36,866 bases of DNA from a virus. Taxonomy: Duplodnaviria > Heunggongvirae > Uroviricota > Caudoviricetes. Under the pieces are notes generated by a model. It searched no databases. It was not told where the DNA came from and saw nothing but the letters and a program-made list of their open reading frames with translations. The stretch lies in the IMG/VR virus record IMGVR_UViG_2724679138_000004; one strand, 5' to 3'. Positions 1,936-32,712 of this stretch are shown here, piece by piece (position 1 is the stretch's first letter; every line of letters starts with the position of its first letter). Position numbers and translations under genes: made by a program.

Positions 1936-3099
1936 TCACTCATTATCTTCTGTTTCGTACTCCACATCAGAAAGCCTGACCTCAAGCTCCAGGGACGTCG
2001 TGAAGCCGCTATTATTCAGAAAATGTGTCACCTTAGTGATTGTCCAGTCCTGCTCGTCTATGACGCGCTTAAAGCCTGACACTTTGACCGGCGTTTCCGT
2101 GTAAATATCTGCCCGACCGGTAGCCATGCTGATGGAGAACTCCGCAACGCCCCGTTGCAGTTTATCCCACTTCGCCTGAGCGGCGCGCATGGCCTGCGCT
2201 TTCGTGGCATATACCGTGGTCAGGGCAAAAACATTGTCAGCCTCACCGGCCATGTATTCACCTTCGCGCGCTTCCGGCACTTTTGGCGCTTTCTTCTGCG
2301 TGACCGGTTTCGCTTTCGGGTGCTCCAGTGCGCGCAGGTGTTTCTCTTTCTTTTTGCGTTTCAGTTTTACCTTCTGCTTTTGTGGCTTCGGGTCTTTGGT
2401 GTGTAACCACTTTGCCGTTACGCCGGTGTAGGCTCCACGGTCAGCAATCGCAAAATGATGACGGTCGCCGTCGCTGCGGGTGATGGTAATCTGCGGGATT
2501 TTTTTACCGCTGGCCGTCACCCCCTGCCCCGCTTTGAGAAACAACAATTTTCCCATTTTTACCGACACCTCACCGCCGTTGCGTTCAGCAAGGCGGGTCA
2601 GGAATTTTGCATCAGACTCCTGCGACTGGTCGATGTGCGGGATTTTAATTCCGGCCAGTGACGGAGCGACACTGGCTTCCAGCCTGTTACGGGAGGCTAT
2701 CGCCTCAACAATCGCACCGAGCGTGGTGTCATGCCAGGAGCCTTCACGGCGGGAATTGAGCGTCCCGCGAAAATCTGCACTCCGGGCGCGGATGGTGACC
2801 ACATCCGGCGCGCCCCGGTGTTCAACCTCATCAACGGTAAATTTCCCTTTGCATACCAGGGCAAAACCTTTCCAGCCGATATACACCGTCAGGACAGCGC
2901 CACGAACCGGCAGCCCGACCTGCCCGTCGGCATCGTTCAGTTCAATATCAAGCTGGTCAGCCTCAAAGCCCCGGTTATCCGTCAGGGTCATACTCATCAG
3001 ACGGTCGCTGATATTGCCGGTAATATCCCTGCTGTCGAGCATCAGCATGTAATCCGGCATCAGCGTACTGCCTGCATCAAATGTCAGCGCATCCAGCAT
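1936..3099 (-). CDS. D: Tail protein D (late control gene D)
   Basis: 387 aa, same length and position as P2 gpD, immediately downstream of U. Confidence 0.9.
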   Translation of the reverse strand: MLDALTFDAGSTLMPDYMLMLDSRDITGNISDRLMSMTLTDNRGFEADQLDIELNDADGQVGLPVRGAVLTVYIGWKGFALVCKGKFTVDEVEHRGAPDVVTIRARSADFRGTLNSRREGSWHDTTLGAIVEAIASRNRLEASVAPSLAGIKIPHIDQSQESDAKFLTRLAERNGGEVSVKMGKLLFLKAGQGVTASGKKIPQITITRSDGDRHHFAIADRGAYTGVTAKWLHTKDPKPQKQKVKLKRKKKEKHLRALEHPKAKPVTQKKAPKVPEAREGEYMAGEADNVFALTTVYATKAQAMRAAQAKWDKLQRGVAEFSISMATGRADIYTETPVKVSGFKRVIDEQDWTITKVTHFLNNSGFTTSLELEVRLSDVEYETEDNE

Positions 3100-3578
3100 T
3101 ATCCCGCCCCCGTCATACCCGTGAATTTAGTCGCCATACTGCCAGCCTTACCAATGAGCGATTCCGCCTGTTTACCGATATCGCCATAAAGCGCGGCCAG
3201 TGACTCATCAACGCGGGTGAGCGACAGCGTAAAATCAATTTTTCGGGGTGTGCCGTCTGCAAAGAAAATACTCCCTGTTTCACTCACCTTGCTGATGACA
3301 TACATGCCGTAAATCATGCCGGTACCATCCAGCAACGGCCACGCCCGGCCTTCATCTGCCATCAGTCTGAGCGTGGTCATCGTCAGCTTGCCGCCGGTCA
3401 GTTCGGGATAAAGCACACCGGCAAGCGTCATGTTTTCCTCACCAACGCCGAGAAACTGGTAGGCATCCCGTTTACCGATACGGGAATTTGACGGCCAGCG
3501 ATAATCTGATTCACGCTGCATGGTCTGGTGTGGCAGCGTCTGGCGCATAAAAACAAACATACCTAACGCGAGCATCAT
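3099..3578 (-). CDS. U: Tail protein U
   Basis: 159 aa as in P2 gpU; overlaps the D start by 1 nt. Confidence 0.9.
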   Translation of the reverse strand: MMLALGMFVFMRQTLPHQTMQRESDYRWPSNSRIGKRDAYQFLGVGEENMTLAGVLYPELTGGKLTMTTLRLMADEGRAWPLLDGTGMIYGMYVISKVSETGSIFFADGTPRKIDFTLSLTRVDESLAALYGDIGKQAESLIGKAGSMATKFTGMTGAG

Positions 3579-3592
3579 TTTTCGTCACCTCC

Positions 3593-6040
3593 TTAACCGT
3601 CATGCATCATGCTGGCACGGGCGCGCGCACGTTTATCCCGCTCGTATTTTTCGAGCGCATCCTGTAACTGGCGGTCAAGCTGTGTCCCCGGTGCAGTACC
3701 ACCCGTCAGGCTGATGTGATATTCGTTTTTACTCTGGTCCACATAAGAGCGGCCAGCCGGTGCCGTGACCGGCTGATAAGCCTGATAGCCTGCATAAGAG
3801 CTGGTCGCCGGAATATAACCACCGCTGCAATACGTGGCGGCTTGAGTTCTGGCGGCGGTCTGGTCAAGTGTGTCTGACTCTTTGTTGATAACACCGAGTT
3901 TTTCCAGTACCCAGTCAATTCCGCTGCGCAGTTTGTTGAACGCATTAAGCGGCAGCATCAGCGCGTCAGCCAGTGCCTGCCCGAACATGACGCCCGTGTC
4001 ACGGCAACGGTTCAGGGTGTCCTGAGTGGCTTTGACCGGGGCAATCAGGTTTTTAAACCACTGCCACGCGGCCTGTAACTTTTCACCCAGCCAGTCAAAC
4101 ACCGGCTTAAGTGGCGTGAACAGTTCCCCCACCGGCGCAAATGCCACTTTCAGCCCTTCCACCACACCGCCAAAGAATGCGCTGACAGGCTCCCAGTATT
4201 TACGGATAAGCAACGCTCCGGCGACAATGGCGGCCACCACGGCCACAACCGGCCAGCTAATCGCCCCGATGGCCGTCATAACGGCACTGCCAACCGTCGT
4301 GAAGATTGCCCCCATTGCGCCTGCTGCCGCTATGATGGCATTGATGCCGGTGATAACCGGCCAGGCTACAAGACCAATGGCACCGATGATGCCAGTAAGC
4401 GCCAGTGCGCCACCGGCAATGATGCCGATGGTTGACGCCAGTGATTTGTTTTTCTGTATCCAGCCGTCGAGTTTTAACACATACTTTGTGGCCGTCTGCG
4501 TGAGCTTACGCAGCGCGCCTTCCTGCTGGTCAAACAGGTCAGTCCCCACCGCCTCATAAGCGGACTGAAACTCCTTAAAGTCACCGCCGAGGTTATCCTG
4601 CATGATTTTAACCAGCTCTTCCGTTTTACCGTCCGAGGCTTTCAGCGTGGCGGTCAGCGTATCCAGTTTTCCGCTTGCTGCCGCTGCCAGTAAAACGTTC
4701 GCTGATTTCAGGGCTTCCTCACCAAAAATGGTTTTAAGGTATTCCCCCTTCTGAGACGTTCCCAGCTTGTGTTTATCAAAGCTGGCCTGAATCTCTTTCA
4801 GAATGGTGAACAACGGACGCATATTTCCCTTTTTGTCCGAGGTTTTAACGCCAAGCTCTTTGAGTGCATCCCATGCTTTTCCAGTCGGTGCCTGTAATCG
4901 GGTGACAACGGCACTGCTACCCGTACCCGCCATTGACCCCCTGATGTTATTGTCATGCAGCACACCTGTCATGGCCGCTGCCTGTTCAAGACTTACACCT
5001 GCCGTCCTCGCAACCGGCCCGAGGTAAGTCAGTGCATCACTGAGTCCCTGAAAATCAGCCGCCGACTTATTCATCGTTGCCGACAACACGTCGCCCACAT
5101 GGCTGACATCATCATTTGACAGTTGAAAGGATGCCTTAGTCCCCAGCAACAGTTGCGCGTTTTCTTCCATCGACCGCTGATTCGCCAGTGCCATATTCAG
5201 CGTGACCGGCGTTGCCGCCTGAATGGCATCAACATCCCCACCGGCTTTCGCAATAATAATCTGCGCACCGGCTGCATCATCTGCCGAGGCTGCGGTATTG
5301 TCGCCGAGCTGACGCGCCTGCTTGCGTAGTGCAGCCATTTCGGCGGAGTCTTTTGCCACACCGAGCACGGCCTGCAATTCTGAGTTTTTCTGCGCAAACT
5401 CATAACCTGGCATCAGCAGCTTAACACCGGCCATCGTTCCCGCCGCCGCAATCCCCACACCGGCAGCGCCCACTGAGGCCATATTTCCGGCCAGTTCCTT
5501 TCCGGCCTGATAACGCTGTTTGACTGCGTTAAGTTTTGCCTGTTGCGCACTGACACGCGCCAGCGCATCACGCTGACGGTTAAGCTGTGCGGTGGTTTCA
5601 CTGATACGGTTTTTCAGTCCCTGCTCATCATGTGCAAGATTGCGGGTATTAATTCCCACAACGGCCAGTTCCCGCTGCTGGCGTTTAACGGAATCCGTCA
5701 GGCGGTTATATTTCGCCTGTAAGTCCTCCGCCGCACGCTTTGCGGATTCCAGCACTTTCGCCTGAGCACGGGTCGGTCGTTCGGTATTTTTAAACTGTGT
5801 GGCAAGGGCTTCGGCTTCCTGCCGAGCCTTTTCAAGTGCATGACCAGTCACGGCGAGCTGTGCACTGGTCTTGCGAAATCCCTCAATACGGGATGCCTGA
5901 CCGTTCAGCTCGCGCAGTGATTTTTGTGTTTCCCGGATATCCCCCGACAGCGATTTGCTCGCTGTGCGGATGGATTTAAACGGGCGGGATGCCTGGTCAA
6001 CAGCCCTGAGCAATACCTGTAATTTTACATTGTTACTCAT
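3593..6040 (-). CDS. T: Tail tape measure protein T
   Basis: 815 aa, coiled-coil N-terminus, Gly/Ala-rich hydrophobic central segment; P2 gpT length and position. Confidence 0.92.
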   Translation of the reverse strand: MSNNVKLQVLLRAVDQASRPFKSIRTASKSLSGDIRETQKSLRELNGQASRIEGFRKTSAQLAVTGHALEKARQEAEALATQFKNTERPTRAQAKVLESAKRAAEDLQAKYNRLTDSVKRQQRELAVVGINTRNLAHDEQGLKNRISETTAQLNRQRDALARVSAQQAKLNAVKQRYQAGKELAGNMASVGAAGVGIAAAGTMAGVKLLMPGYEFAQKNSELQAVLGVAKDSAEMAALRKQARQLGDNTAASADDAAGAQIIIAKAGGDVDAIQAATPVTLNMALANQRSMEENAQLLLGTKASFQLSNDDVSHVGDVLSATMNKSAADFQGLSDALTYLGPVARTAGVSLEQAAAMTGVLHDNNIRGSMAGTGSSAVVTRLQAPTGKAWDALKELGVKTSDKKGNMRPLFTILKEIQASFDKHKLGTSQKGEYLKTIFGEEALKSANVLLAAAASGKLDTLTATLKASDGKTEELVKIMQDNLGGDFKEFQSAYEAVGTDLFDQQEGALRKLTQTATKYVLKLDGWIQKNKSLASTIGIIAGGALALTGIIGAIGLVAWPVITGINAIIAAAGAMGAIFTTVGSAVMTAIGAISWPVVAVVAAIVAGALLIRKYWEPVSAFFGGVVEGLKVAFAPVGELFTPLKPVFDWLGEKLQAAWQWFKNLIAPVKATQDTLNRCRDTGVMFGQALADALMLPLNAFNKLRSGIDWVLEKLGVINKESDTLDQTAARTQAATYCSGGYIPATSSYAGYQAYQPVTAPAGRSYVDQSKNEYHISLTGGTAPGTQLDRQLQDALEKYERDKRARARASMMHDG

Positions 6041-6460: not shown

Positions 6461-6516
6461 GGTTTTCTCACTTCTGAATCGGGGTTAACCGGTCAGCCAG
6501 GCTGACCGGATGAAAA

Positions 6517-7047: not shown

Positions 7048-8226
7048 TTAATTGCTGTTAACCGAAGTGACCAGATTTGCCAGGTATTTATCGGTAATAC
7101 GCTGGCGCAGGGTCAGGTTTTCGAGAGGAGGCACCGGGGTATAGTCATAGTCGATATACAGTTTTCCGGCCTTGAGGGTTTCCGCATCGTTGGATTCTTC
7201 GCTGAACCAGCAGGTCGCATCCACGATATAGCCGTTTGTTTTCAGCTCACGGAATTTGGCATTGATGCCGTCAACGATGTCGCGAATCAGCGTTGCGGTG
7301 ATGGGCTTGTCCACCGCCCACATGTGCGCCTCAGCCATCGTGTCGGCCAGCACCTGCGCGGTGCGGGTGTAGTTTTCAAAGAGGAACAGCGGGTCATCAG
7401 AGCAGGTACGGTTACCCCAGAATCGGAAACCGTCGCGGCGAATCAGCGTAGTGACACCTGCCTCGTTCAGCAGGTCAGCATCGGTGCCGGACTCCTGCAA
7501 ATCCCAGAATACAGATGCGCTGATGCCGGTAACACCGTTCACCCCGACGTTGGACAGCGTTTTATGCCAGCCCTGATCCTGGTCGATTTTAGCACGCAGA
7601 CCCAGCGCACGGGCGGTGGCGGTGGTACTGGTGACCGTATCCCATGCGAGGAAATCCGGCCAGATGACCATCAGCTCACGCTGGCTGAAATTCTGGCGGT
7701 AGGCTTTCACCTCGGAAATGGTTTTACAGCCCCATGCGCTGATATACCCGAAAGCGCGCAGCTTCTGACAGACTGATGCCAGTGCAACAGCCACCTCTTT
7801 GGTGTCCAGTCCCGGCACACCGAGAATACGCGGTTTAACACCGGTTACCGACTCTGCCGCCAGCAGGGCTTTCAGTCCGGTGTACTGACCGTTTTCGTCG
7901 GTGGTGCCGATGATATTGGAAACGGTCTGCGCAAGTTTCGTTTCTTCGTCTTCGCCGGTGCCGTCTTCCACACGTACAACAACGGTGACCGGTTTTGACT
8001 GGTCAGCGATGGCCTGCAACGACGCCGCCAGCGTGCCTTTTTTACCGGCCTTTGCAATTGCGCTCTGCACATTGGTAATCAGCACCGGTTTATTGAGGGG
8101 AAAGGTTTCCGCATCCGCATCGCTGGCCGTGCAGACCATGCCGACAATGGCAGTGGATACGGTGGAAATGACGCGGGTGCCGTCGTTAATCTCCAGCACC
8201 TGCACGCCGTGATGATAGTCACTCAT
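7048..8226 (-). CDS. FI: Contractile tail sheath protein FI
   Basis: 392 aa; P2 gpFI-like sequence and position upstream of FII. Confidence 0.92.
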   Translation of the reverse strand: MSDYHHGVQVLEINDGTRVISTVSTAIVGMVCTASDADAETFPLNKPVLITNVQSAIAKAGKKGTLAASLQAIADQSKPVTVVVRVEDGTGEDEETKLAQTVSNIIGTTDENGQYTGLKALLAAESVTGVKPRILGVPGLDTKEVAVALASVCQKLRAFGYISAWGCKTISEVKAYRQNFSQRELMVIWPDFLAWDTVTSTTATARALGLRAKIDQDQGWHKTLSNVGVNGVTGISASVFWDLQESGTDADLLNEAGVTTLIRRDGFRFWGNRTCSDDPLFLFENYTRTAQVLADTMAEAHMWAVDKPITATLIRDIVDGINAKFRELKTNGYIVDATCWFSEESNDAETLKAGKLYIDYDYTPVPPLENLTLRQRITDKYLANLVTSVNSN

Positions 8227-8751: not shown

Positions 8752-9810
8752 TTATTTTTCCTGTGTATCATCATTCAAATCCGGTGCAGTCCGAAGTACA
8801 TTCGTGAAGTTAAGAAGCATTTTTTTTGTGCCAAAAGTGAACATCTCAGAGATTTCAGATGAAATGCTATCCCAAATAAAAATGATATGCCTCAAATACT
8901 CAACAACTCCAGGCCGGTTCAATGTACCTTCGATAAGATAATGTTCAGGAATACCCTCCATTATTCCAGTCTTTCTTATCCAGAAAAGTCCAACCCTGTT
9001 GGCCGATTCACCACCTGCAAGCACATAACTACGACGTTGATCTGTGTTTGGAATAGAAAGTATTTCAAAAATTAAAGGCACGATCATTTCAAGCCTTACG
9101 AATGGCCTAGGATGTGTACCAACTGGTTCTGTTTGAACCTCATAAAGTTTTTCGCCTTGAAAACGATGTAACATTAATGATATACCACATGTCAAAAAGC
9201 AAATTGCCAATTCGCAATCTTCATTAATGGCAAGTTGTCGAACAATTTCTATTACACACATGTATGTGGAAAAATAATCGGCTGCAAGTTCCGTTGCGTG
9301 CCAAATGGCAGATGCATCGTCATTGTCTGATGATAAATTATTTAAGTGAATTTCAGACATTACATTAATTTCGGAACTATACCTGTTCCTTATAAATAAA
9401 TGGCCCTGAGTTAAGTGTCCTAACTCATGAAAAAAAACCCATGTCAAACCTGCTAGAAAAATGTTTTTAGTGAAATTAGTTTTATCCCACTCATTTCTTA
9501 AAGTGGTAAAGTTGGTTTGCCCATTAAACCACATATCATAAACTTCATCATCTTTACCAGAGTGAACATAATCTACAAAAGCAGCAGCATCATCATATAA
9601 TGATCGGATTAATTTATATGTGATTGATATAGCATGCCTTGGTGGTTCATCACGCTCTGAGTAAACTAAAGCTCTAGCGTTCACAATATCTGTAGTTTCA
9701 AATTGTAAAGCGAGACTGCCATTAATTTCTTTATAGTAATGTTCATTCAAATCTTCTGTAATAGAAGACAAAACACTTGTAGCCCAGTTGTATAGCGCGA
9801 TACTTTCCAT
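8752..9810 (-). CDS. Hypothetical protein with zincin-like HExxH motif (FFHELGHLTQGH); candidate defence cargo in the FI-G (Z/fun) hotspot
   Basis: 352-aa ORF, visibly AT-rich relative to flanking tail genes; HELGH encoded at 9415-9429; acidic residues downstream (HATELAAD) could supply the third zinc ligand. No family assignment possible without search. Confidence 0.75.
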   Translation of the reverse strand: MESIALYNWATSVLSSITEDLNEHYYKEINGSLALQFETTDIVNARALVYSERDEPPRHAISITYKLIRSLYDDAAAFVDYVHSGKDDEVYDMWFNGQTNFTTLRNEWDKTNFTKNIFLAGLTWVFFHELGHLTQGHLFIRNRYSSEINVMSEIHLNNLSSDNDDASAIWHATELAADYFSTYMCVIEIVRQLAINEDCELAICFLTCGISLMLHRFQGEKLYEVQTEPVGTHPRPFVRLEMIVPLIFEILSIPNTDQRRSYVLAGGESANRVGLFWIRKTGIMEGIPEHYLIEGTLNRPGVVEYLRHIIFIWDSISSEISEMFTFGTKKMLLNFTNVLRTAPDLNDDTQEK

Positions 9811-11135: not shown

Positions 11136-13385
11136 TTATACCTGCGCCACGTTATACCATGTCCCGTTAATGTATTTCTGCACCGGTCTGTAATATACGC
11201 CACCAATGTTATCGGCAGAGTTTGAGCCGGTATCCTGAACAATAATGCCGGTATATACGCAACCTGACGGAGCCTGATGCGTCCATGTAGTACCATTATT
11301 TGCTGGTTTATATGTAGATGCACCGCCCAGCCGCATGTCTCTCACATAACGTGAATCTGACTCAGCTTTGGTGTATGCACCAACATCTCCCGCTGAGGGT
11401 TTATGAGCAGTTGTATATAGTTGCGCCCATCCAGACCAGTTAGCATCTGTGGTATCTCGTCGGGAGCGAATATATGCCGGAGCATGAGCACCGCTGGTTC
11501 CACTCCAGCCAATAAGTAACTCACCCTCTCCTACAGCGGTTACGCCAGTGAGATGAAGCACATTACCATAGGCTGTTGGGTAGCCATTGTTGTATGCCTC
11601 ATACATCTGAATACCTGGTGTCCCCTTTACGCTCCCACCTAATGCAGTAACACGGTTTCTGGATACCAGTGTATTAATATTTATATCGGCAGAGCCATCA
11701 AATCTGACACCATTAATATTTCTTGCGTTCGCTAACTTAGTTGCTGTTGCAGCATTTCCTGAAAGGCTGGAAATAAATGGATGTGAACAGTAATAACCAC
11801 GTCCATTTTTAAAATCCAGAATAGCCTGTACGTTCGTGCTTTCTGTAGCGGGATTAGTTGCCCCCCACTTATATGTCGTCTGACCGACGACATAATCCTC
11901 TGTCGGAACAATAACCGTTAGCCCTTCCTCTGCAAGAATTTGTACTGGGAAAGCTCTGGCTTCAACATAAAAAACACTACATACATCATCATCTTTCAGG
12001 CTTGTAACAATGGAATGGATTGAACGCTCATTAGTCTGATACGTCCAGAAATAACCTGCCGCATATGAACCACGATCGGTCCAGCCTCCGGGCATAACCA
12101 TGCCATTAAACTCGCAGTTATTCATTACATAATCGCCGTTATAACAACCAGTTGAAATAACGACGCGGGATGCCATTTCTCCTGAAAGGCTGGCAGCACG
12201 GCGAAAGATAACGGGATACCACTTCCCGGCAACGACATTTGCAGGGGCTGCAAACGAATACTTTCGCATTCCCTTTTTCTTATCCACTTCACCTTTGCTG
12301 TAAACATTAATGTTACTCAGGAAGCGTCCTTTATCAGGAATATCCGCACCGTTCTGATCTTTCTGAAGACGTTTTTCAGCATTGTCATAGGCAGACTTCA
12401 CCGCTTTTGGTGTTGCAGCCAGCGTTTCAGAATCACTGTTGGTGGCGCTACTGAGCTGGACAAGACCTTTTCGCGCTGTGGTGGCATCCTGTGCAGTGTA
12501 TTTCCCGTTAGCAAGGTCATACGCTGTCTTAACCGCCTTTGGCGTTGCCGCAAGCGTTTCAGAATCGCTGTTGGTGGCGCTACTGAGCTGGACAAGGCCT
12601 TTTCGCGCGGTGGTGGCGTCCTGTGCAGTGTATTTCCCGTTAGCAAGGTCATATGCTGCTTTTACCGCTTTTGGTGTTGCGGCGAGCGTTTCAGACGTGC
12701 TGTTGGTGGCACTACTGAGCTGGACAAGGCCTTTTCGCGCTGTGGTGGCGTCCTGTGCAGTGTATTTCCCGTTAGCAAGGTCATATGCTGCTTTTACCGC
12801 TTTTGGTGTTGCGGCGAGTGTTTCAGACGTGCTGTTGGTCGCACTGCTTAACTGAGTAAAACCTTTGGCGGTCAGCGAGGCGTCCGGGTGACGTCGTGAC
12901 TGTTCATGTTCTGCAATTTTGTCATCAACGTAATCCTGCGTTGCCATCACCGTTGTGGTGTCAATGGTCAGCGCCACTGAGGCCACACTGCTGACGATGA
13001 TGACCATGCGGCAGGTCTGCGAACGCCCTGAGCCTTCGGCAAGAGCTGGCTTATAACTTTCAGCCATGTTCGCCACGGCAATTAACGTTCCAGCATCATC
13101 GTACAGGCCAAGCTCACGCATCCAGAAACCGCCCACCTCCGGCGGAATAACCAGCTCTGCGATAATATAATTACTGTTTCGTTTGTCCTGGCTGATTTTG
13201 TTCAGCGCATGTCGCCAGACTTCGTGGATAAGCCCGGTCTGTCCGGCATCCGGGACAGGCAATTTACCACCGCCATCCCCGACGGCCATCGTGGTAATGT
13301 TGACCTTCCGCCCTCCCGGCGCGGTTGCCGCTGCCAGCTTTGCTGCACCGGCAGTGGTGATAACGGTTTTAAATTTCGTGCTCAT
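11136..13385 (-). CDS. H: Tail fibre protein H with four tandem 44-aa repeats
   Basis: 749 aa; N-terminus matches P2 gpH (MSTKFKTVITTAGAAKLAAA...); central repeats ...LSSATNSTSETLAATPKAVKAAYD...; divergent C-terminal receptor-binding part. Confidence 0.9.
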   Translation of the reverse strand: MSTKFKTVITTAGAAKLAAATAPGGRKVNITTMAVGDGGGKLPVPDAGQTGLIHEVWRHALNKISQDKRNSNYIIAELVIPPEVGGFWMRELGLYDDAGTLIAVANMAESYKPALAEGSGRSQTCRMVIIVSSVASVALTIDTTTVMATQDYVDDKIAEHEQSRRHPDASLTAKGFTQLSSATNSTSETLAATPKAVKAAYDLANGKYTAQDATTARKGLVQLSSATNSTSETLAATPKAVKAAYDLANGKYTAQDATTARKGLVQLSSATNSDSETLAATPKAVKTAYDLANGKYTAQDATTARKGLVQLSSATNSDSETLAATPKAVKSAYDNAEKRLQKDQNGADIPDKGRFLSNINVYSKGEVDKKKGMRKYSFAAPANVVAGKWYPVIFRRAASLSGEMASRVVISTGCYNGDYVMNNCEFNGMVMPGGWTDRGSYAAGYFWTYQTNERSIHSIVTSLKDDDVCSVFYVEARAFPVQILAEEGLTVIVPTEDYVVGQTTYKWGATNPATESTNVQAILDFKNGRGYYCSHPFISSLSGNAATATKLANARNINGVRFDGSADININTLVSRNRVTALGGSVKGTPGIQMYEAYNNGYPTAYGNVLHLTGVTAVGEGELLIGWSGTSGAHAPAYIRSRRDTTDANWSGWAQLYTTAHKPSAGDVGAYTKAESDSRYVRDMRLGGASTYKPANNGTTWTHQAPSGCVYTGIIVQDTGSNSADNIGGVYYRPVQKYINGTWYNVAQV
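12380..12875. repeat. About four tandem copies of a 132-bp coding repeat inside H (phage tail-fibre repeat)
   Basis: Near-identical 132-nt units visible in the DNA; the antisense ORF 12439-12855 is repetitive for the same reason. Confidence 0.85.
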
Positions 13386-15894: not shown

Positions 15895-16680
15895 ATGTTC
15901 AGTGATAATGTGACTAATGCGTGGTGGTTTATCTCTTTGTATCTATTTTTATTAATAGCATTAACATTTATTACCTTTGGTAAAAGTAATCTTATGAGAT
16001 TTATTGCACATCATTTCAATTTTGAGTATTCAGACAGAAAGTTAAAAATGCTCGACAAAAAATGGCGCGACATTCAACTATTTAAAATAATTAACGGAAT
16101 CAATGTATCAGGCATCGAAGATGTGAGAATGATACAGCAGGGGCTGATTGATGGAAAACTAAAAACATCGTATTTTTTTCTTACTCGCTTCTGGGGTGAC
16201 ATAACAAAACCACCACACATAATTAAAACAATAATTGTAATTCTGTCCAGCATTATTTATATTCTCTTCGCATGTTATATACACAACAAACAATCCGCTA
16301 TAGTAAGAGATGCCATAGGCATACCATATAAAAATATGATGTACTATGTTTATAGTGACAAAGTTCTTTTATCCTTCAACAATAAAACAGTTGAATTCAA
16401 TAAAACTTATAGCCTTGCCGATTGCAAGAGGCTACGAAACGTATTTATAAAAGACACACTTCCTGAGATCGCCTGCAATAAGCTCTTACAGCTAAACGAG
16501 GAGGACTCGGAATGGTTAAGTCAGGAGATTAAAGATAATAACAGCCAAAAAAAAGCATTATTAATAATATCCCTCATCTATTTCATTTCAGGTCTGGTTA
16601 TATTCCTGTCATATACAAAATTCCTTTACGCCAATAAGAAGGTTGTAGAATACAAAGCATCAAATAAAAATCACTCATAA
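15895..16680 (+). CDS. AT-rich moron: hypothetical membrane protein with three predicted transmembrane helices
   Basis: 261-aa ORF on the strand opposite the late genes; strong RBS GAGGAGAG 5-12 nt upstream of ATG; hydrophobic segments near aa 9-28, 108-128 and 220-245; occupies the P2 orf30 position between V and S. Confidence 0.8.
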   Translation: MFSDNVTNAWWFISLYLFLLIALTFITFGKSNLMRFIAHHFNFEYSDRKLKMLDKKWRDIQLFKIINGINVSGIEDVRMIQQGLIDGKLKTSYFFLTRFWGDITKPPHIIKTIIVILSSIIYILFACYIHNKQSAIVRDAIGIPYKNMMYYVYSDKVLLSFNNKTVEFNKTYSLADCKRLRNVFIKDTLPEIACNKLLQLNEEDSEWLSQEIKDNNSQKKALLIISLIYFISGLVIFLSYTKFLYANKKVVEYKASNKNHS

Positions 16681-24898: not shown

Positions 24899-25917
24899 TG
24901 AGCAAGAAAAAAGGGAAAACACCGCAACCTGCGGCAAAAACAATGACCGCCAGCGCCCCGAAAATGGAGGCATTCACCTTTGGTGAGCCGGTGCCGGTAC
25001 TCGACCGCCGTGACATTCTGGATTACGTCGAGTGCATCAGTAACGGCAGATGGTATGAGCCGCCGGTCAGCTTTACCGGTCTGGCGAAAAGCCTGCGTGC
25101 TGCCGTGCATCACAGCTCGCCGATTTACGTCAAACGCAATATTCTGGCCTCGACATTTATCCCGCATCCGTGGCTTTCCCAGCAGGATTTCAGCCGCTTT
25201 GTGCTGGATTTTCTGGTGTTCGGTAATGCGTTTCTGGAAAAGCGTTACAGCACCACCGGTAAGGTCATCAGACTGGAAACCTCACCGGCAAAATATACCC
25301 GCCGTGGCGTGGAGGAGGATGTTTACTGGTGGGTGCCGTCCTTCAACGAGCCGACAGCCTTCGCGCCCGGCTCCGTGTTTCACCTGCTGGAGCCGGATAT
25401 CAATCAGGAGCTGTACGGCCTGCCGGAATATCTCAGCGCCCTTAACTCTGCCTGGCTGAATGAGTCGGCCACGCTGTTCCGCCGCAAGTATTACGAAAAC
25501 GGCGCTCATGCCGGATACATCATGTATGTCACCGATGCCGTGCAGGATCGCAACGATATCGAAATGCTTCGCGAAAACATGGTTAAGTCGAAAGGCCGCA
25601 ACAACTTTAAAAACCTGTTTCTCTATGCCCCACAGGGGAAAGCCGACGGCATTAAAATTATCCCCCTCAGTGAAGTGGCGACGAAGGACGATTTTTTTAA
25701 TATCAAAAAAGTCAGCGCCGCAGATCTCCTGGACGCACACCGCATCCCCTTTCAGTTGATGGGCGGTAAGCCGGAGAATGTCGGGTCACTAGGAGATATT
25801 GAAAAAGTGGCAAAGGTCTTTGTCCGCAATGAACTCATTCCATTACAGGAGAGAATAAAGTCAATAAATGAATGGTTAGATATGGAAGTCATAAAATTCC
25901 TTGATTATAACTTATAA
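24898..25917 (+). CDS. Q: Portal protein Q
   Basis: 339 aa; P2 gpQ-like, immediately downstream of P. Confidence 0.9.
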   Translation: MSKKKGKTPQPAAKTMTASAPKMEAFTFGEPVPVLDRRDILDYVECISNGRWYEPPVSFTGLAKSLRAAVHHSSPIYVKRNILASTFIPHPWLSQQDFSRFVLDFLVFGNAFLEKRYSTTGKVIRLETSPAKYTRRGVEEDVYWWVPSFNEPTAFAPGSVFHLLEPDINQELYGLPEYLSALNSAWLNESATLFRRKYYENGAHAGYIMYVTDAVQDRNDIEMLRENMVKSKGRNNFKNLFLYAPQGKADGIKIIPLSEVATKDDFFNIKKVSAADLLDAHRIPFQLMGGKPENVGSLGDIEKVAKVFVRNELIPLQERIKSINEWLDMEVIKFLDYNL

Positions 25918-25929
25918 GTAAATATATAA

Positions 25930-25956
25930 AGTTGGCGGAATGCAATCCCGCCAACT
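25930..25956. terminator. Hairpin terminator between convergent Q (+) and the 2TM gene (-)
   Basis: Perfect 9-bp stem AGTTGGCGG / CCGCCAACT; T-rich on the minus-strand 3' side. Confidence 0.55.
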
Positions 25957-25959
25957 TAA

Positions 25960-26667
25960 CTATATATACTTCCTTTTCACTCTACTTAATTCTATCACTG
26001 ATGAGGAGTGACAAAATGACAAATTAATAGTATCGATATAATCCAAAATTTGACTCTCAACCTCAATAAAAATATTTTTGGGCCCATTACTAATCGATAT
26101 ACCGATTTCATCCAAAACAGCCATCATTTTTCTCTGATGAGTTTTATATTTATAGTCTTTATTTTCCTCTGTAATATGCGCATTGGCTTCCTCAATAACG
26201 CATTTGATTCTAGATATTATTTCTAGATAATCTCTCGAAACAGATATATCACCGCCTTGCGCTTCAGGGAACATAACCCTATACCATCTAAAAAAATTAA
26301 CTTTCTCTGGATAGATGCTACTTCTTTTAGTTAACTCAGCACTTGCAAATTCTCTAAACATCGTCAGATGACTAGTGTAATTACTATTATTATTATTTTT
26401 AACTCCAGCGTTATATGTCATCAAAGCAATCATAACACCAAAAACGGTAACAAAAGTTGTTATAAGCCATCCAAACGCCTGAAAATACATTACTATACCA
26501 GATGTTTTTTCCGCAAAAAATTTTAAGCACTGGCTATCGAAGCATATATCACGCTCATATAGCTTTTCATTCTGAATAGTTTCAAAAAGAGAAATTAGCG
26601 AAAAAATCAAAAAAAGAGCTGACGACACACCGACAATATATTTGAGAAGTCTAATATTTGCATTCAT
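25960..26667 (-). CDS. Two-transmembrane-helix protein, putative effector partner of the upstream reverse transcriptase
   Basis: 235 aa, strongly AT-rich; hydrophobic helices near aa 8-28 and 58-85; start ATG overlaps the RT stop (ATGA), indicating translational coupling. Confidence 0.8.
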   Translation of the reverse strand: MNANIRLLKYIVGVSSALFLIFSLISLFETIQNEKLYERDICFDSQCLKFFAEKTSGIVMYFQAFGWLITTFVTVFGVMIALMTYNAGVKNNNNSNYTSHLTMFREFASAELTKRSSIYPEKVNFFRWYRVMFPEAQGGDISVSRDYLEIISRIKCVIEEANAHITEENKDYKYKTHQRKMMAVLDEIGISISNGPKNIFIEVESQILDYIDTINLSFCHSSSVIELSRVKRKYI

Positions 26668-27938
26668 AATGGTTTTAAAGATGCCAATCTAGATTTAAAA
26701 CACTCCAGTTTTTCTTTAAATGATTCAGAGCGAGTAAGAATAATCATCTTATATCTCGTCAAATCATATTTTCTTTTATACCAATGTTTATTTTGATTAC
26801 CTTTCGAATACGACAACTCTAAACTTTTTATAGCTGCATCAATCACAGCAACATCTCTTTTAGATGGCATCGGTTTTATTGCCTGCAACTGTTTCTTGAA
26901 TGATTCATATTTTTCATGCCCAACACGGCCAAGCTTATTCACTCTCCCCATACATCTATTGAATTCTTTTCTGTATGCAACACTTGTTTTTGTGTTATTT
27001 TTTGCCGCCAGTAATTTCAAATTATGTATAGATGCCCTGATTCTTTTGACTTCATCGGATGGTAGTCGAGGTGAGTCATAGTCAACTCTTAAACCATGTA
27101 CTTTTATAGGTTCAGATGAACAGTGAAATATTTTAGTTTTGTGCTTATTTATCGGCAAGTCATGCTCAGAAAGCATCCTCTCTATATGGCTTTGCATTTG
27201 AGAAAAATCATAATTACTTATTTTAGATGACACGGTAATATCATCTACCAAACGCGTATAAACAAGTCCTTTCCTCTGCGCACGTCTTACCACATCCCCT
27301 TCAACAGCGAATAAACACAAAGTTGCTATATAGCTTGATGTTAAGGCCCCCTGTACGACAAAATCATCCTTAGTACATATATCCACCAAGTATTCAAGAG
27401 CCTCATCCTTAATATGCAATATCTCCTCAAACACGCTCCTAACCAGATCTCTATGGATATTATCGAAAAAATTACTTATATCCACCTTGAGAACTGTTTT
27501 TGCTCCACAATGAGCCTTTGCACATGAAACATAGTCACGTTTGACATTAGAATTTAAAACATCATTTTTACTGGGAACTGAACCAAACAAAAATGAAGGA
27601 AAAACAACCAATTCCTTAAAGATACGTTTATTAATTCTACTCTGTAATAATCTCATTTTAGGATGCAGGGAGTAGACAATCCGTTTGCTTCCGTCAATTT
27701 TGGGAATTTCTTTTAGAGTATATTTCTCATCTAATGGTAATTCTGCAATAGCTTTAAGCTCTTCAACAGAAATCGATAAAGCCTTTGACAACTTTTCAAG
27801 TGTTGTGATAGGAGCATTGGATTTGCTGTATGGTTTAAATTTATCCATAAACATACCATTCAAATTCAAAGTTACGTACGGTCTTCCCATACTCAAGGGT
27901 GGAACAGCAGAGATGCTTACATCAACAATTGTCAGCAA
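26664..27938 (-). CDS. Retron-type reverse transcriptase (candidate); start codon uncertain
   Basis: RT motifs in order: LKVDISNFFDNI, QGALTSSYIATLCL, YTRLVDDITVSS (catalytic xDD at about 27239-27248), LPINKHKTKIF, VHGL; ORF in track starts at TTG 27938, alternative ATG starts at 27890, 27854, 27848. Confidence 0.8.
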   Translation of the reverse strand: MLTIVDVSISAVPPLSMGRPYVTLNLNGMFMDKFKPYSKSNAPITTLEKLSKALSISVEELKAIAELPLDEKYTLKEIPKIDGSKRIVYSLHPKMRLLQSRINKRIFKELVVFPSFLFGSVPSKNDVLNSNVKRDYVSCAKAHCGAKTVLKVDISNFFDNIHRDLVRSVFEEILHIKDEALEYLVDICTKDDFVVQGALTSSYIATLCLFAVEGDVVRRAQRKGLVYTRLVDDITVSSKISNYDFSQMQSHIERMLSEHDLPINKHKTKIFHCSSEPIKVHGLRVDYDSPRLPSDEVKRIRASIHNLKLLAAKNNTKTSVAYRKEFNRCMGRVNKLGRVGHEKYESFKKQLQAIKPMPSKRDVAVIDAAIKSLELSYSKGNQNKHWYKRKYDLTRYKMIILTRSESFKEKLECFKSRLASLKPL

Positions 27939-28106
27939 CAGCCTCTGCTATCTTTCGACCGTACGTAATGTCGTCGGCTACGGCACCATCGTAGTTGACG
28001 ACGGTGGGGCCTCGCTGATAGGTCCATAGTGGACGCTTTTTTGTAAAAGCAAAAACTGACAATTTAATGTTGTTGACTGCCGCATACCAAGCGAATCGCT
28101 GGTGCG
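27927..28106 (-). ncRNA. Candidate retron msr/msd-like non-coding RNA upstream of the RT
   Basis: 9-bp inverted repeats (plus-strand CTGACAATT 28056-28064 and AATTGTCAG 27927-27935) bracket about 120 nt containing hairpins, e.g. GTCGTC-aa-CTACG-loop-CGTAG-cc-GACGAC at about 27968-28005; hypothetical. Confidence 0.3.
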
Positions 28107-28112
28107 CTAAGA

Positions 28113-28141
28113 ATAATGCAACAAAAAAATAAGAATTTCAA
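28113..28141 (-). promoter_or_regulatory. Candidate sigma70 promoter driving the candidate ncRNA and RT (TTGAAA-17 nt-CATTAT on the minus strand)
   Basis: -35 at plus 28136-28141, -10 at plus 28113-28118, 17-nt spacer. Confidence 0.4.
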
Positions 28142-28179
28142 CCGGGTAACTGCAAGCCAGCGACATCGTTTAGCGCGCA

Positions 28180-28198
28180 GTGCTTTCCCCGCCTCGCC
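28180..28198. other. cos cohesive-end site (reverse complement of GGCGAGGCGGGGAAAGCAC)
   Basis: Exact match to the 19-nt P2 cohesive end as I recall it; lies between Q and A as expected. Confidence 0.75.
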
Positions 28199-28404
28199 CG
28201 CCCGCTTCATGGGGCGGTTTTAATGCAGTTGCATGACCACTCAACTAGCGCGCCAGTCCTGATGTCGCCAGGCAGTTATTGTTCTCTGACTTGCATGCGC
28301 TTCGATGCAGAGTAATGCACTTCCTGAATTGCTCGCATTCGCATCGTTATCATGATAGAAAACAGGTAGTTATTTGTGCGCAACTTAAGAAGAAATCACT
28401 AATT

Positions 28405-29948
28405 ATGAAAAAGATTTATGAATTAACTACTGGTAGAGCGCTTAAGTATTTTCTGCAGCATGATTCATACACTACTCTGGAGCTACCCAGTTATGTCGAT
28501 TTTTCTTCCTTGCTTGAAGAAATCAACTCCGCGATAGATGAAGGTAAAATCAACTTCCAACCTGACTCCAAGTCATTGATGGGGAAGAATATAAATTACG
28601 AGGTTTTAGTCAGCAAAGATGGCTTATATAGCTGGCGACGAATAACACTAATTAATCCTCTGTACTACGTGTATTTTTGTAAACTTATTACATCCCCTTC
28701 CAACTGGAAGGCTATAAGGAATAAATTTAGAGAGTTTGAGTCTAATGATCTTTTTTATGCTCAAGTACCCCAGTGAGCAAAAAGAACACCTCAAACGTAG
28801 CTGCATCTGTTTTAAACTGGTGGGAAGATTTTGAACAAAAAAGTCTTTCATTGGCTCTTGAGTATGAGTTCATGTTCAGCACAGATATTTCAAACTTCTA
28901 CCCTTCTATTTACACTCATAGCTTTGAATGGGTATTCATCTCAAAAGAAGAGGCCAAAAAGAAAGAAAATAACAATAACCCAGGACGATTGATTGACACT
29001 CATATCCAGATGATGATGAGTAATCAGACAAACGGAATACCATTGGGTAGTACGTTGATGGATACATTTGCCGAATTAATTTTAGGCGAAATTGATTTAC
29101 AGCTAAGAAAAAAAACTGAAGAGCAAAAAATAACGGATTACAAAGTAGTTCGCTACAGAGATGATTATCGAATATTTTCAAGCAGTAAAGATGATTTGGA
29201 CAAAATCTCAAAGTGTTTGGTTGAGGTCTTAGGTGAGTTTGGGCTTGATTTAAACTCAAGAAAAACAGAACTACATGACGACATCATTCTTCACTCCCTT
29301 AAATCAGCAAAAAAAGAATATATTATAGAAAGGTCGTTCAACTCCCTACAGAAAATGTTGTATGCAATATATTTATTTTCTTTAAAACATCAAAACTCCA
29401 AAATTACAGTTAGATATTTAAATGATTTCTTGCGAAAATTATTTAGGAAGAAAAAGATCACAAATAGTGGGCATCAACTAGATGCAATGCTTGGAATTAT
29501 TTCAAGCATCATGGCTAAAAACCCAACCACCTACCCAGTGGGAATGGCTATTTTCGCAAAACTCTTGACCTTCCTTTATGACGACGATGAACTCAAATTT
29601 GGCAAGTTACAACAACTTCATTGTAAACTAGGTAAACAACCAAATACTGAAATGTTAGATATTTGGTTTCAACGAGTTCAAGGGAAGATACACACACAAT
29701 GGGAAGGCGATTACAAAACAGCCCTATGTCAACGCATAAATGATGAACTCAAGGAAAAAAAAACATTTACCATTGATGGCCTGTGGGATGTAGAGTGGAT
29801 TCCGGGTTCAGCCAAAAATAAAAACAAACAGAAAATACTATCAATTTTGAAAAAAACAAAAATTGTGGATTTAGATGCATTCGAAGAAATGGATAATGAT
29901 ATTACACCAGAAGAAGTGAACTTATTCGACAAGGAACACAGCGCTTAA
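28405..29948 (+). CDS. Abi/UG-type reverse transcriptase split by a -1 frame change at a T6 run (segments 28405-28776 and 28773-29948); possible pseudogene or programmed frameshift
   Basis: Segment 1 carries RT motif 1-like RRITLINPLYYVYFCKL; segment 2 carries FMFSTDISNFYPSI, NGIPLGSTLMDTFAEL, VVRYRDDY (YRDD at 29154-29165) and FGLDLNSRKTEL; frame 0 opens at 28749 and the T6 run is 28751-28756. Confidence 0.75.
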
Positions 29949-30046
29949 CGAAACAATGTTATTAACTCAACATGACTTCGTTAAGCATTAAAGCGAACAG
30001 TCATATGAAATTTCGACATCCCTAACGCCTCGCAAGCTCGTTGTTC

Positions 30047-30092
30047 ACCCCCGCCAGCACTGAAAGCGAGTTTCAGCGTCGACGGGGTTTTC
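30047..30092 (+). terminator. Rho-independent terminator downstream of the second RT
   Basis: GC-rich imperfect hairpin CCCCGCCAGCACTGAAA-gcgag-TTTCAGCGTCGACGGGG followed by TTTTC. Confidence 0.6.
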
Positions 30093-30113
30093 TATGGTCA
30101 ACGTGGTGACAGA

Positions 30114-30374
30114 TTATGGGCACGCGTGAAGGTAGAAATATGGACGGTTGGGATTATTGATTTCTCCCATACGGCTGCAGTTATCACTGACGCTCTCAGT
30201 CCCTCCGACCAACTCGTAGAGGGTCAGATTCTCTTTGACCATAATTTGTAAACAATAGCCATCAGCCGCAGACTCTTGCACGAGTACAATGGCGGAACCG
30301 GACGCATAGCTAGTAATGTATGCATTAGTCATAATGACATGCTTCCAAAGCAAGATCGCCACGCAGTTCCGCAT
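30114..30374 (-). CDS. Small hypothetical protein downstream of A (P2 orf91 position)
   Basis: 86-aa ORF only; no recognisable motif. Confidence 0.3.
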   Translation of the reverse strand: MRNCVAILLWKHVIMTNAYITSYASGSAIVLVQESAADGYCLQIMVKENLTLYELVGGTESVSDNCSRMGEINNPNRPYFYLHACP

Positions 30375-30435
30375 GATCCATCAGTTGCTGATACCAACCA
30401 TCAAGTGGAAGAAAAATCAACCATTTCAATCATTT

Positions 30436-32712
30436 TTATATGTTTGTTGAGAATCCCGGCCACTCATCAGCGACCGGATACGTGAATTTTTCCCCGTCAT
30501 AATTTACGGTCGCGCCACGCGCCAGCGCCTCAAGCTCCCATCGCTGTGGCCTGATACCGTTCTGAGCAAGGTCAACGCGGATACGGGTAATTTGCGTTCG
30601 TTCCGACCGGGTCAGTCTGGCCGATGGCGCTATTTCATGTGGTTTTAACGGGCTTCCGTTTCTCTGCTGACGATTTGGTGTTCTCAGTTCGTGTTTTAAT
30701 GCACCTCTGAGCGCCCTCACGACCTCTGGCTCATTCCATTCGATAACACCGTCATCAACCAGATTAAGCACTGCTGCGGCGTGCTCAGAAGGTGTGGGAG
30801 CCGGTAACGAAGTATCACCGTCGGTAAGCTTTCCACAGTTATTGACAGGACTCCGAGGCGCGGCGATGCCGCTTTTTAAAGTCAAAGGCTCAACGACCGG
30901 CACTTTCGGAACAATGCGCCAGTCCGTCGTTCTGGTGATATGAATATGACGCGCGCCGAGATGCGGCGCGTAAATGCCGACCACTCTCTCGACTTCTTCC
31001 TCGTACTCGTTAACGTCATCCGACGGGCTACGGGCAACCCTGACAGTCTGGCAATCGCGCGGGACATTTGCCCCACCCTGCGCGCTGATATACAGCGCAA
31101 AATCACCACTGTCTGCGGCGGCGCGTGCAGCCTCGACGCGCTCGTCAAACTCATCAGCAATGCTGACGCCGCGAGGCAATTTGCGTAGTTCACGGTAAGC
31201 CCCCATTGTCGGCAGGCCAACCGTTTTAAATTGCGGAATGCGCCACGTTGACGCCCATGCGGTAACAGCCGCGGCAGTATCTTTCAGCGGTCTGCCGGTA
31301 TCGTTATCGAGCTGCCCATCCAGTGCATAGCCGTCGATATTTTTTGAGATGTATTTCGCGATATACCCCGCAGCACCGCCCCAGTTAAGGTGTTTTGCCT
31401 GAAAACGGTTTCGCGCGGCTCCTCTTTCGTCGCCATCCTCTTTGAGCGCATAGCGACGCATGATTTCGATAATCTGGTTACGCTGGCGTGGATGACAAAA
31501 AAGCATCATATGCCAGTGCGGCGTTCCGTCGTGGTGTGGCTCGACGACACGCAAACCGTAGACCTGTAAATCATTATCCTTGAATGCCGTGCGCATCAGG
31601 CTCCAGATACGGCAGAGATAACGCTGCGCATCCTTTGGATTAAATGCCTCATCGTTCCAGCCGTGATTAAGCTGAACGGTTTTACTTTCGCCTTTTCCGA
31701 CCTGACGTGTCGGGTGATACTTTGACGGCGCGGTCAGCGTGATAAACATCCCCAAATCACCCTCTGCGGCGGCGTAACGCTCAATACCGGCAATGGTGTT
31801 CATCAGCTCCATCCGGCGAATTTCTGGATTAGAAATACTGCCCATCACCTTACTGATAAGGTCGATGCGCTCGCCGGTTTCCCTGTTTTCAAGGTCACAC
31901 GATTTAAGAAATTCCAGATTTGCCTGGCGGCGCGCACGCACATCACGAATGGCATGTTTACTGGCATAAGGAGAACGGTCTTTATTGACCTCCCCGACAG
32001 CAATCAGTAACGCCTCATGCCAGCGCATACGCTGGCCTTTAAGCTGACTAATCCACCACTCATCGTTAAACAGACGGGCAATGGCAGAATATGCCTGCCT
32101 CGTGGTCATCTGTCCTTTACGGTATTTTTTCCAGTAGAGCGGGGAAATATTGAAAGCACGTGCAGCGCCAGCAACATGACCATACAGGTGAGCCTGCGCC
32201 TCATCCGTAAACAGCGATTCTTTTTCACCATGCGCATCAACCCATGCATCGCAGAGTTCCTCATACATCATGAAAAGCTGCGATGAGATACGGGCGGCAA
32301 ACTTTTTCAGCTCCTTGTCATTCATTCCAGGCAGGCGCGCATAGTGGTCACGCTCTGCCAGAAACAGCAACGACGCGTCGGTGTTCATTTCATGGCGCTG
32401 ATTCACGCGCTCAATGCGCGGCCATAAACGACGCTGAAAAGTGGATGTGAGGAAATAAAACCCGTGCACCGGGCTTTTATTGCGCCGGATGTAGTCATAG
32501 CGTGAAGTAAACAGCGAGCGCAAAAAGTAAGGCAGGCGGTTAATCGTGGATAAAACACCTTGCACCTGACGCATCTCGTCACGTGTAAGGGGTCTTTCGC
32601 GCCCGACAGCCTCGCGTGGCGCGTTCCATACATAAGCACCGGTAAACGTCTTACCGGTGCCTGCGGCAAATGCTGACGGAGGGACAAAACGCCCGGAGGC
32701 TTTAACGGCCAT
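30436..32712 (-). CDS. A: Replication initiation protein A (rolling-circle nickase)
   Basis: ATG at 32710-32712 gives 758 aa (MAVKASGRFVPP...), close to P2 gpA; the listed ORF extends to an upstream TTG. Confidence 0.9.
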   Translation of the reverse strand: MAVKASGRFVPPSAFAAGTGKTFTGAYVWNAPREAVGRERPLTRDEMRQVQGVLSTINRLPYFLRSLFTSRYDYIRRNKSPVHGFYFLTSTFQRRLWPRIERVNQRHEMNTDASLLFLAERDHYARLPGMNDKELKKFAARISSQLFMMYEELCDAWVDAHGEKESLFTDEAQAHLYGHVAGAARAFNISPLYWKKYRKGQMTTRQAYSAIARLFNDEWWISQLKGQRMRWHEALLIAVGEVNKDRSPYASKHAIRDVRARRQANLEFLKSCDLENRETGERIDLISKVMGSISNPEIRRMELMNTIAGIERYAAAEGDLGMFITLTAPSKYHPTRQVGKGESKTVQLNHGWNDEAFNPKDAQRYLCRIWSLMRTAFKDNDLQVYGLRVVEPHHDGTPHWHMMLFCHPRQRNQIIEIMRRYALKEDGDERGAARNRFQAKHLNWGGAAGYIAKYISKNIDGYALDGQLDNDTGRPLKDTAAAVTAWASTWRIPQFKTVGLPTMGAYRELRKLPRGVSIADEFDERVEAARAAADSGDFALYISAQGGANVPRDCQTVRVARSPSDDVNEYEEEVERVVGIYAPHLGARHIHITRTTDWRIVPKVPVVEPLTLKSGIAAPRSPVNNCGKLTDGDTSLPAPTPSEHAAAVLNLVDDGVIEWNEPEVVRALRGALKHELRTPNRQQRNGSPLKPHEIAPSARLTRSERTQITRIRVDLAQNGIRPQRWELEALARGATVNYDGEKFTYPVADEWPGFSTNI

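Follow-up and report, generated by a model that had tools for sequence, protein, structure and literature searches.

The window analysed here, the whole 36,866-nt stretch of DNA, is a P2-like prophage lying between yegQ/trhP and yegR. Its cohesive-end site was located with the 19-mer that we take to be the P2 cos sequence, and between cos and replication gene A, the position of tin/old in P2, lies a reverse transcriptase (RT) gene of the Abi-P2 type that is broken into two open reading frames (ORFs; Table 1). An Abi-P2-type RT had been placed at this position in the original prediction, and both the AbiP2 profile and the locations of cos and gene A bear this out. The Abi-P2 region has a GC content of 35%, as against 50% for the whole window, which fits the low-GC, variable cos-to-gene A (tin/old) location of this family, and the Klebsiella and Salmonella Abi-P2 homologues are placed between the portal gene and gene A. 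A small ORF between the RT and gene A, for which no family match was found, is part of the variable cargo segment shared with the Abi-P2 gene. Between the portal gene and cos, on the portal side, lies a retron Ec48-type system with its own RT and effector. With the retron RT on the portal side and Abi-P2 on the gene A side, RT-based defences flank cos on both sides; the earlier description of a second RT on the other side of cos therefore holds, in that cos lies between the Abi-P2 and retron loci. An Rfam scan of 25500-30600 returned no msr/msd and no other RNA at E <= 0.1.

Table 1. Coordinates of the features discussed, as positions in the 36,866-nt window.
Feature	Position	Strand	Remark
352-aa ORF	8752-9810	-	Z/fun-type variable position, tail-fibre assembly to tail sheath genes
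Tail-fibre gene tandem repeat	12378-12845		About 3.5 copies of 132 bp (44 aa), 86-91% mutually identical
261-aa ORF	15895-16680	+	Opposite strand to the late genes; orf30-type moron position
2TM effector of the retron Ec48-type system	25960-26667	-	Beside its RT
Retron Ec48-type (type IV) RT	26664-27848	-	PADLOC
P2 cos, exact 19-nt cohesive-end sequence	28180-28198	-	0 mismatches; 0 chance matches expected
ORF1, 5' fragment of the Abi-P2 gene	28405-28776	+	123 codons plus stop
3' part of the Abi-P2 gene, -1 frame (ORF2)	28749-29948	+	Possible GTG start at 28773, giving 391 aa
T6 run, site of the 1-bp deletion	28751-28756	+	Base-by-base comparison with EC93, EcWJ and P2-EC58 (all T7)
Small ORF between the RT and gene A	30114-30374	-	86 aa; ORF85 in the P2-EC58 record
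Replication gene A	30436-32712	-

The 5' fragment reads in frame from its ATG to the TGA at 28774-28776, and the -1 frame opens just 3' of a TGA at 28746-28748, contains the GTG and stops at 29946-29948. The sequence CTTTTTTA at 28750-28757 lies inside the overlap of both ORFs, and insertion of one T into the run fuses the two frames into a protein of 514 aa followed by a stop, against about 515 aa proposed originally. All coordinates and quoted motifs of that proposal, in which a -1 frame change at the T run divides the RT, were recovered. The frame is broken after codon 117, with a stop 7 codons past the run, and the last 6 codons of ORF1 (YAQVPQ) are out-of-frame sequence. ORF1 carries the fingers helices, the priming tyrosine Tyr30 and RT motif 1, and ORF2 supplies the palm, whose catalytic Asp residues lie in DISNFYPSI and YRDD, and the C-terminal helical domain. 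Searched separately against the PADLOC AbiP2 profile, ORF1 covers positions 4-118 (E 5.9e-36) and ORF2 positions 127-487 (E 1.8e-116). As these are adjoining stretches of one profile, and motif 1 does lie in ORF1, the two are parts of one protein rather than unrelated proteins, which had been named as one outcome that would overturn the idea.

The protein obtained by restoring one T, hereafter the repaired protein, matched the PADLOC AbiP2 profile over positions 4-487 of 489 in a profile search (E 1.2e-159), that is, over both the RT-like part and the family-specific C-terminal helical domain. The HMM classification suggested for the fused protein thus returns the AbiP2 family from end to end, with Drt6 as runner-up (E 2.8e-47). 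Pfam RVT_1 was matched in the ORF2 part and in the repaired protein. Over all 514 aa the repaired protein shows 100% identity to WP_087889730.1, the RT of E. coli EC93, as it does to orf544 of phage P2-EC58 (CAJ43157.1; AM157368.1), and such identity to a known protein puts the split RT far beyond chance. Judged by these matches, the gene encodes an abortive-infection enzyme that is already known, the Abi-P2 polymerase (P2-EC58 orf544 type) of a P2-like prophage. At the DNA level these two references are 99.8-99.9% identical to the window, with like placement between cos and gene A and the like neighbour ORF85. They differ in having T7 where the window has T6. An intact member of the family would give a polymerase and T5 exclusion; here the ORF is interrupted, so the locus is classed as an Abi-P2 family member in disrupted form.

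The closest solved structure is PDB 7R08 (E 7.6e-258, residues 1-508), which is the Abi-P2 of phage P2-EC30 (orf570; Odegrip 2006; Figiel 2022; PMC9508834). Abi-P2 is a trimeric RT-like enzyme that carries out template-independent DNA synthesis primed from its own Tyr61, a residue required for priming (PMC9508834). Exclusion of phage T5 by the P2-EC30 gene is credited to earlier work in passages of PMC9508834 and PMC8632793. The P2-EC30 protein resembles the EC58 type in its RT-like palm and fingers, its helical domain, its priming tyrosine and its YRDD box, but protein identity to the repaired protein is only ~75% and DNA identity 72%, and both T5 exclusion and polymerase activity were demonstrated with the P2-EC30 allele rather than with one of the EC58 type. 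In the 514-aa protein, Tyr30 aligns with Tyr61 of 7R08 (an offset of 31 residues) and is invariant in 113/113 full-length homologues, whereas Tyr15 aligns with Tyr46, which is dispensable. The N-terminal priming tyrosine expected of the family is therefore present, though on ORF1 and parted from the palm. The catalytic box is present as VVRYRDDYRIF. Its YRDD had been singled out as unusual, and for the Abi-P2 family this is wrong: the Arg is invariant in all 113 Abi-P2 homologues, down to 32% identity, YRDD also occurs in 7R08, and the box of Abi/UG enzymes is given as Y(R/V)DD (PMC8632793). We accordingly rejected YRDD as an anomaly.

The repaired protein also matched the PADLOC Drt4, Drt6 and AbiK families, at 1e-30 to 1e-47. 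These matches to AbiK/AbiA/DRT4-type enzymes are far weaker than that to AbiP2, and the enzymes concerned have other C-terminal domains and another oligomeric state, AbiK being a hexamer. They belong to a common superfamily with Abi-P2 and are likewise protein-primed and template-independent, with a Y(R/V)DD active site (PMC8632793).

We compared the run with 68 close loci, 65 from complete-genome records of E. coli and 3 from phage records. The 111-bp segment of the window around the run corresponds to 112 bases in each of the 60 E. coli records listed out of 65, and the 40 E. coli records listed for a 1,722-bp query show 1,723 bases, as do all 3 phage records. Direct reading of EC93, EcWJ and P2-EC58 gave T7, and in each of them the annotation has a single ORF. 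An exact match to the 111-bp T6 segment was found in 0/65 of the E. coli complete-genome records, and every one of the 68 loci has a continuous single ORF across the T7 site, with none split there. The exact 391-aa ORF2 occurs in one NCBI contig only, LRAB01000032.1 (GCA_001596855.1), although other assemblies and the Logan read assemblies were also searched. Among more distant homologues the frame is continuous as well, the codons at the run being ATT TTT TTA in Salmonella (82% protein identity), ATA TTT TTA in Klebsiella (86%), CTT TTC TTA in a Logan contig (91%) and CTT TTT ACA, with no T7, in the P2-EC30 clade (about 75%). The run has thus been altered by synonymous substitutions in homologues 75-91% identical and is not conserved. 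No naturally split Abi-P2 was found among 261 homologues, the shorter entries being partial or truncated. Set against these relatives, the T6 is a private 1-bp deletion, T7 to T6, in the tEc draft assembly LRAB01000032.1.

Strain 'tEc', the commensal E. coli of the mouse behind the LRAB accession, was sequenced on Illumina MiSeq, with about 2.28 Gb for a 4.7-Mb genome, or roughly 480x, and assembled with GS Assembler (Newbler) and CLC, the result being hand-curated and its gaps closed by PCR and Sanger sequencing (PMC5482719). Compared with its counterpart prophage in E. coli EC93 and EcWJ, the 36.9-kb window shows 99.989% identity over its full length, and it departs from both at 3 shared positions, namely the T run, 30412 and 31383. 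With only these three differences in 36.9 kb, the T-run change is very recent. The three private differences cluster within 2.6 kb (P about 0.015 if randomly placed). At 30412, in the intergenic stretch that parts ORF85 from the end of gene A, the window has A for C, and 0/65 records match the segment exactly. At 31383 it has A for G, within gene A on the minus strand, which changes Arg to Trp (…HLNWGGAAGYIAKY…); 0/1,406 E. coli records match this segment of the window exactly, and the best differ at 1/71 bases. The altered residue lies just upstream of YIAKY, presumably the active-site tyrosine motif of P2 A, and the 31383 change either damages the replication gene or is an error. Other P2-like prophages in these genomes also carry gene A. 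A chimeric consensus drawn from such a paralogous prophage was considered for 30412 and 31383 and found no support, as the alleles occur in 0/65 and 0/1,406 E. coli records, though within the strain itself it may apply. Elsewhere in the prophage, at window position 8000 in the tail sheath gene, it is EC93 that has its own 1-bp deletion and is annotated 'frameshifted', while the window and EcWJ are intact.

We favour a recent and real loss of function of the Abi-P2 defence gene in tEc, with a probability of about one half. Most likely by ordinary replication slippage in the tEc lineage, T7 would have become T6, and translation would stop 7 codons past the run to give a 123-aa fragment with Tyr30 and the fingers/motif 1; the 3' part, which encodes the catalytic palm and helical domain, would be translated poorly or not at all. 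With Tyr30 on ORF1 and the catalytic YRDD palm on ORF2, the T6 allele is predicted to be null, and the outcome would be a recent pseudogene of a defence gene rather than a regulated frameshift. The identity of the gene, the missing T, its restriction to this assembly and the parting of essential residues are shown directly, and we infer from there that function was lost and that the deletion has a biological, not a technical, origin. Several observations bear on that origin. The A9, A8 and A7 runs of the Abi-P2 gene, all longer than the T run, match the reference exactly, and the window shows no other indel against the references across 36.9 kb. MiSeq is a platform with few homopolymer errors, and a slip from T7 to T6 is a common real mutation. 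Taken together, the ~480x Illumina coverage, the intact A runs and the lack of any other indel favour a real deletion, and they argue against the T6 being a consensus or assembly error in LRAB01000032.1. If it were such an error, the strain would carry an intact T7 gene like EC93 and EcWJ, and we rate the chance of this as considerable, if somewhat short of even. The T6 is on record in one assembly only, the private differences crowd into a short interval, and the Newbler and CLC contigs were curated by hand and their gaps bridged by PCR and Sanger sequencing, all of which is compatible with a locally poor consensus. In addition, gene A, being repeated in other P2-like prophages, is a typical gap location, and the 31383 change would set a Trp beside the catalytic tyrosines of that gene. 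An inactivated gene and a homopolymer error, two of the three options offered in the original prediction, both fit these data, whereas the third, a frameshift- or phase-regulated RT, does not, the homologues being single ORFs with T7, which is the homologue half of the condition set there for refuting it.

The functional readings are together improbable. A programmed -1 frameshift or transcriptional slippage that yields a set ratio of full-length RT, or a phase-variable on/off switch, strikes us as very unlikely, even though a P-site tRNA-Phe slip from UUU (28753-55) to UUU (28752-54) would restore the exact wild-type sequence and homopolymer indels do recur in this gene. The comparison of T-run length among homologues, proposed at the outset, speaks against regulation: the near-identical loci have T7 and one ORF at the site (68/68), and synonymous changes break the run in relatives, so that a conserved two-ORF layout with a slippery site is lacking. 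In the T6 allele, which reads GAU CUU UUU UAU, an X XXY YYZ heptamer in phase is lacking, and the 94 nt downstream show no better folding than shuffled sequences do (z = -1.5; 14/200 shuffles equal it), which leaves neither heptamer nor stimulatory structure. Run-length polymorphism, as would mark a phase-variable locus, is likewise missing, with no T6 or T8 variant at the site among close isolates (65 E. coli genomes), and six or seven Ts are too few to support efficient transcriptional slippage or high-rate phase variation. Programmed frameshifting was rejected on the combined evidence of the 68 close and 4 distant loci, the heptamer search and the downstream RNA folding. The known programmed -1 sites of dnaX (A AAA AAG) and HIV-1 (U UUU UUA) offer a partial likeness, as the intact T7 allele has U UUU UUA in phase and the T6 mutant needs a -1 shift for readthrough; unlike them, however, the present site has an unconserved run, no split homologues, no stimulatory structure and, in the T6 allele, no in-phase heptamer. 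More doubtful again is the idea that the T6 is real and the gene partly alive, with a low-level tRNA-Phe slip on CUU UUU U keeping a toxic polymerase at a very low level and T6-to-T7 reversion, which would bring back full defence, serving as a crude on/off switch for a costly gene. Rare P-site tRNA-Phe slippage would be the sole route to activity, and nothing suggests selection for it. Hardly credible is a split enzyme, in which ORF1 and ORF2 are both made through coupling at GTGA (28773-28776) and come together in trans as an Abi-P2 complex, active or altered. The ORF1 stop does overlap a GTG in the ORF2 frame and Abi-P2 is oligomeric (PMC9508834), but the GTGA overlap is also found in the intact gene, without a role there, the break falls within the fingers subdomain of a single fold by the 7R08 alignment, a natural split is missing among the 261 homologues, and ORF1 was not even predicted by the gene caller in the record that carries ORF2.

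The intact T7 allele deserves a remark of its own. At positions 6470-6480 of locus L002, equivalent to window 28749-28758, it reads CUU UUU UUA and thereby holds the HIV-1 gag-pol slip heptamer U UUU UUA in phase. A -1 shift at this heptamer would meet a stop after 7 codons and give an N-terminal fragment of ~124 aa. The heptamer of the T7 allele is not conserved in relatives.

The correct label for the locus is a frameshifted Abi-P2 of the P2-EC58 orf544 type, not two genes or a new regulated RT, and it is of little importance beyond annotation, offering no new regulatory mechanism. Should the deletion prove real, one of the two RT defences flanking cos, which EC93 and EcWJ keep, is gone from tEc, and tEc against EC93/EcWJ would be a natural isogenic pair for finding out what the EC58-type Abi-P2 guards against. 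Single-base deletions in A or T runs were found in the Abi-P2 gene of 4/69 loci, and homopolymer indels, whether biological or technical, recur in this AT-rich gene. Their recurrence calls for caution in defence-system censuses on long-read or draft assemblies. Apart from the window, the complete genome of S56 has a 1-bp deletion in the A8 run of the gene, and those of EC12 and TW10573 have 1-bp deletions in the A9 run. These map to ~29108-29118 and ~29755-29763 of the window; they are independent, and the annotations are split or truncated.

The prophage carries further variable features (Table 1). The 352-aa ORF at the Z/fun-type position, for which no Pfam family was found, gave a weak local match to a Lit protease model (E 1.4e-5, 59 residues). 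The 261-aa ORF lies between the virion morphogenesis and baseplate V genes; it matched no PADLOC family and gave a sub-threshold Pfam match only. The tail-fibre gene contains a tandem repeat. Lastly, in more than 20 E. coli chromosome records the Abi-P2 RT stands at exactly 2713-4435, from which it follows that base 1 of each is the first base of P2 gene A, apparently because start-fixing software took the replication gene of the prophage for the start of the chromosome.
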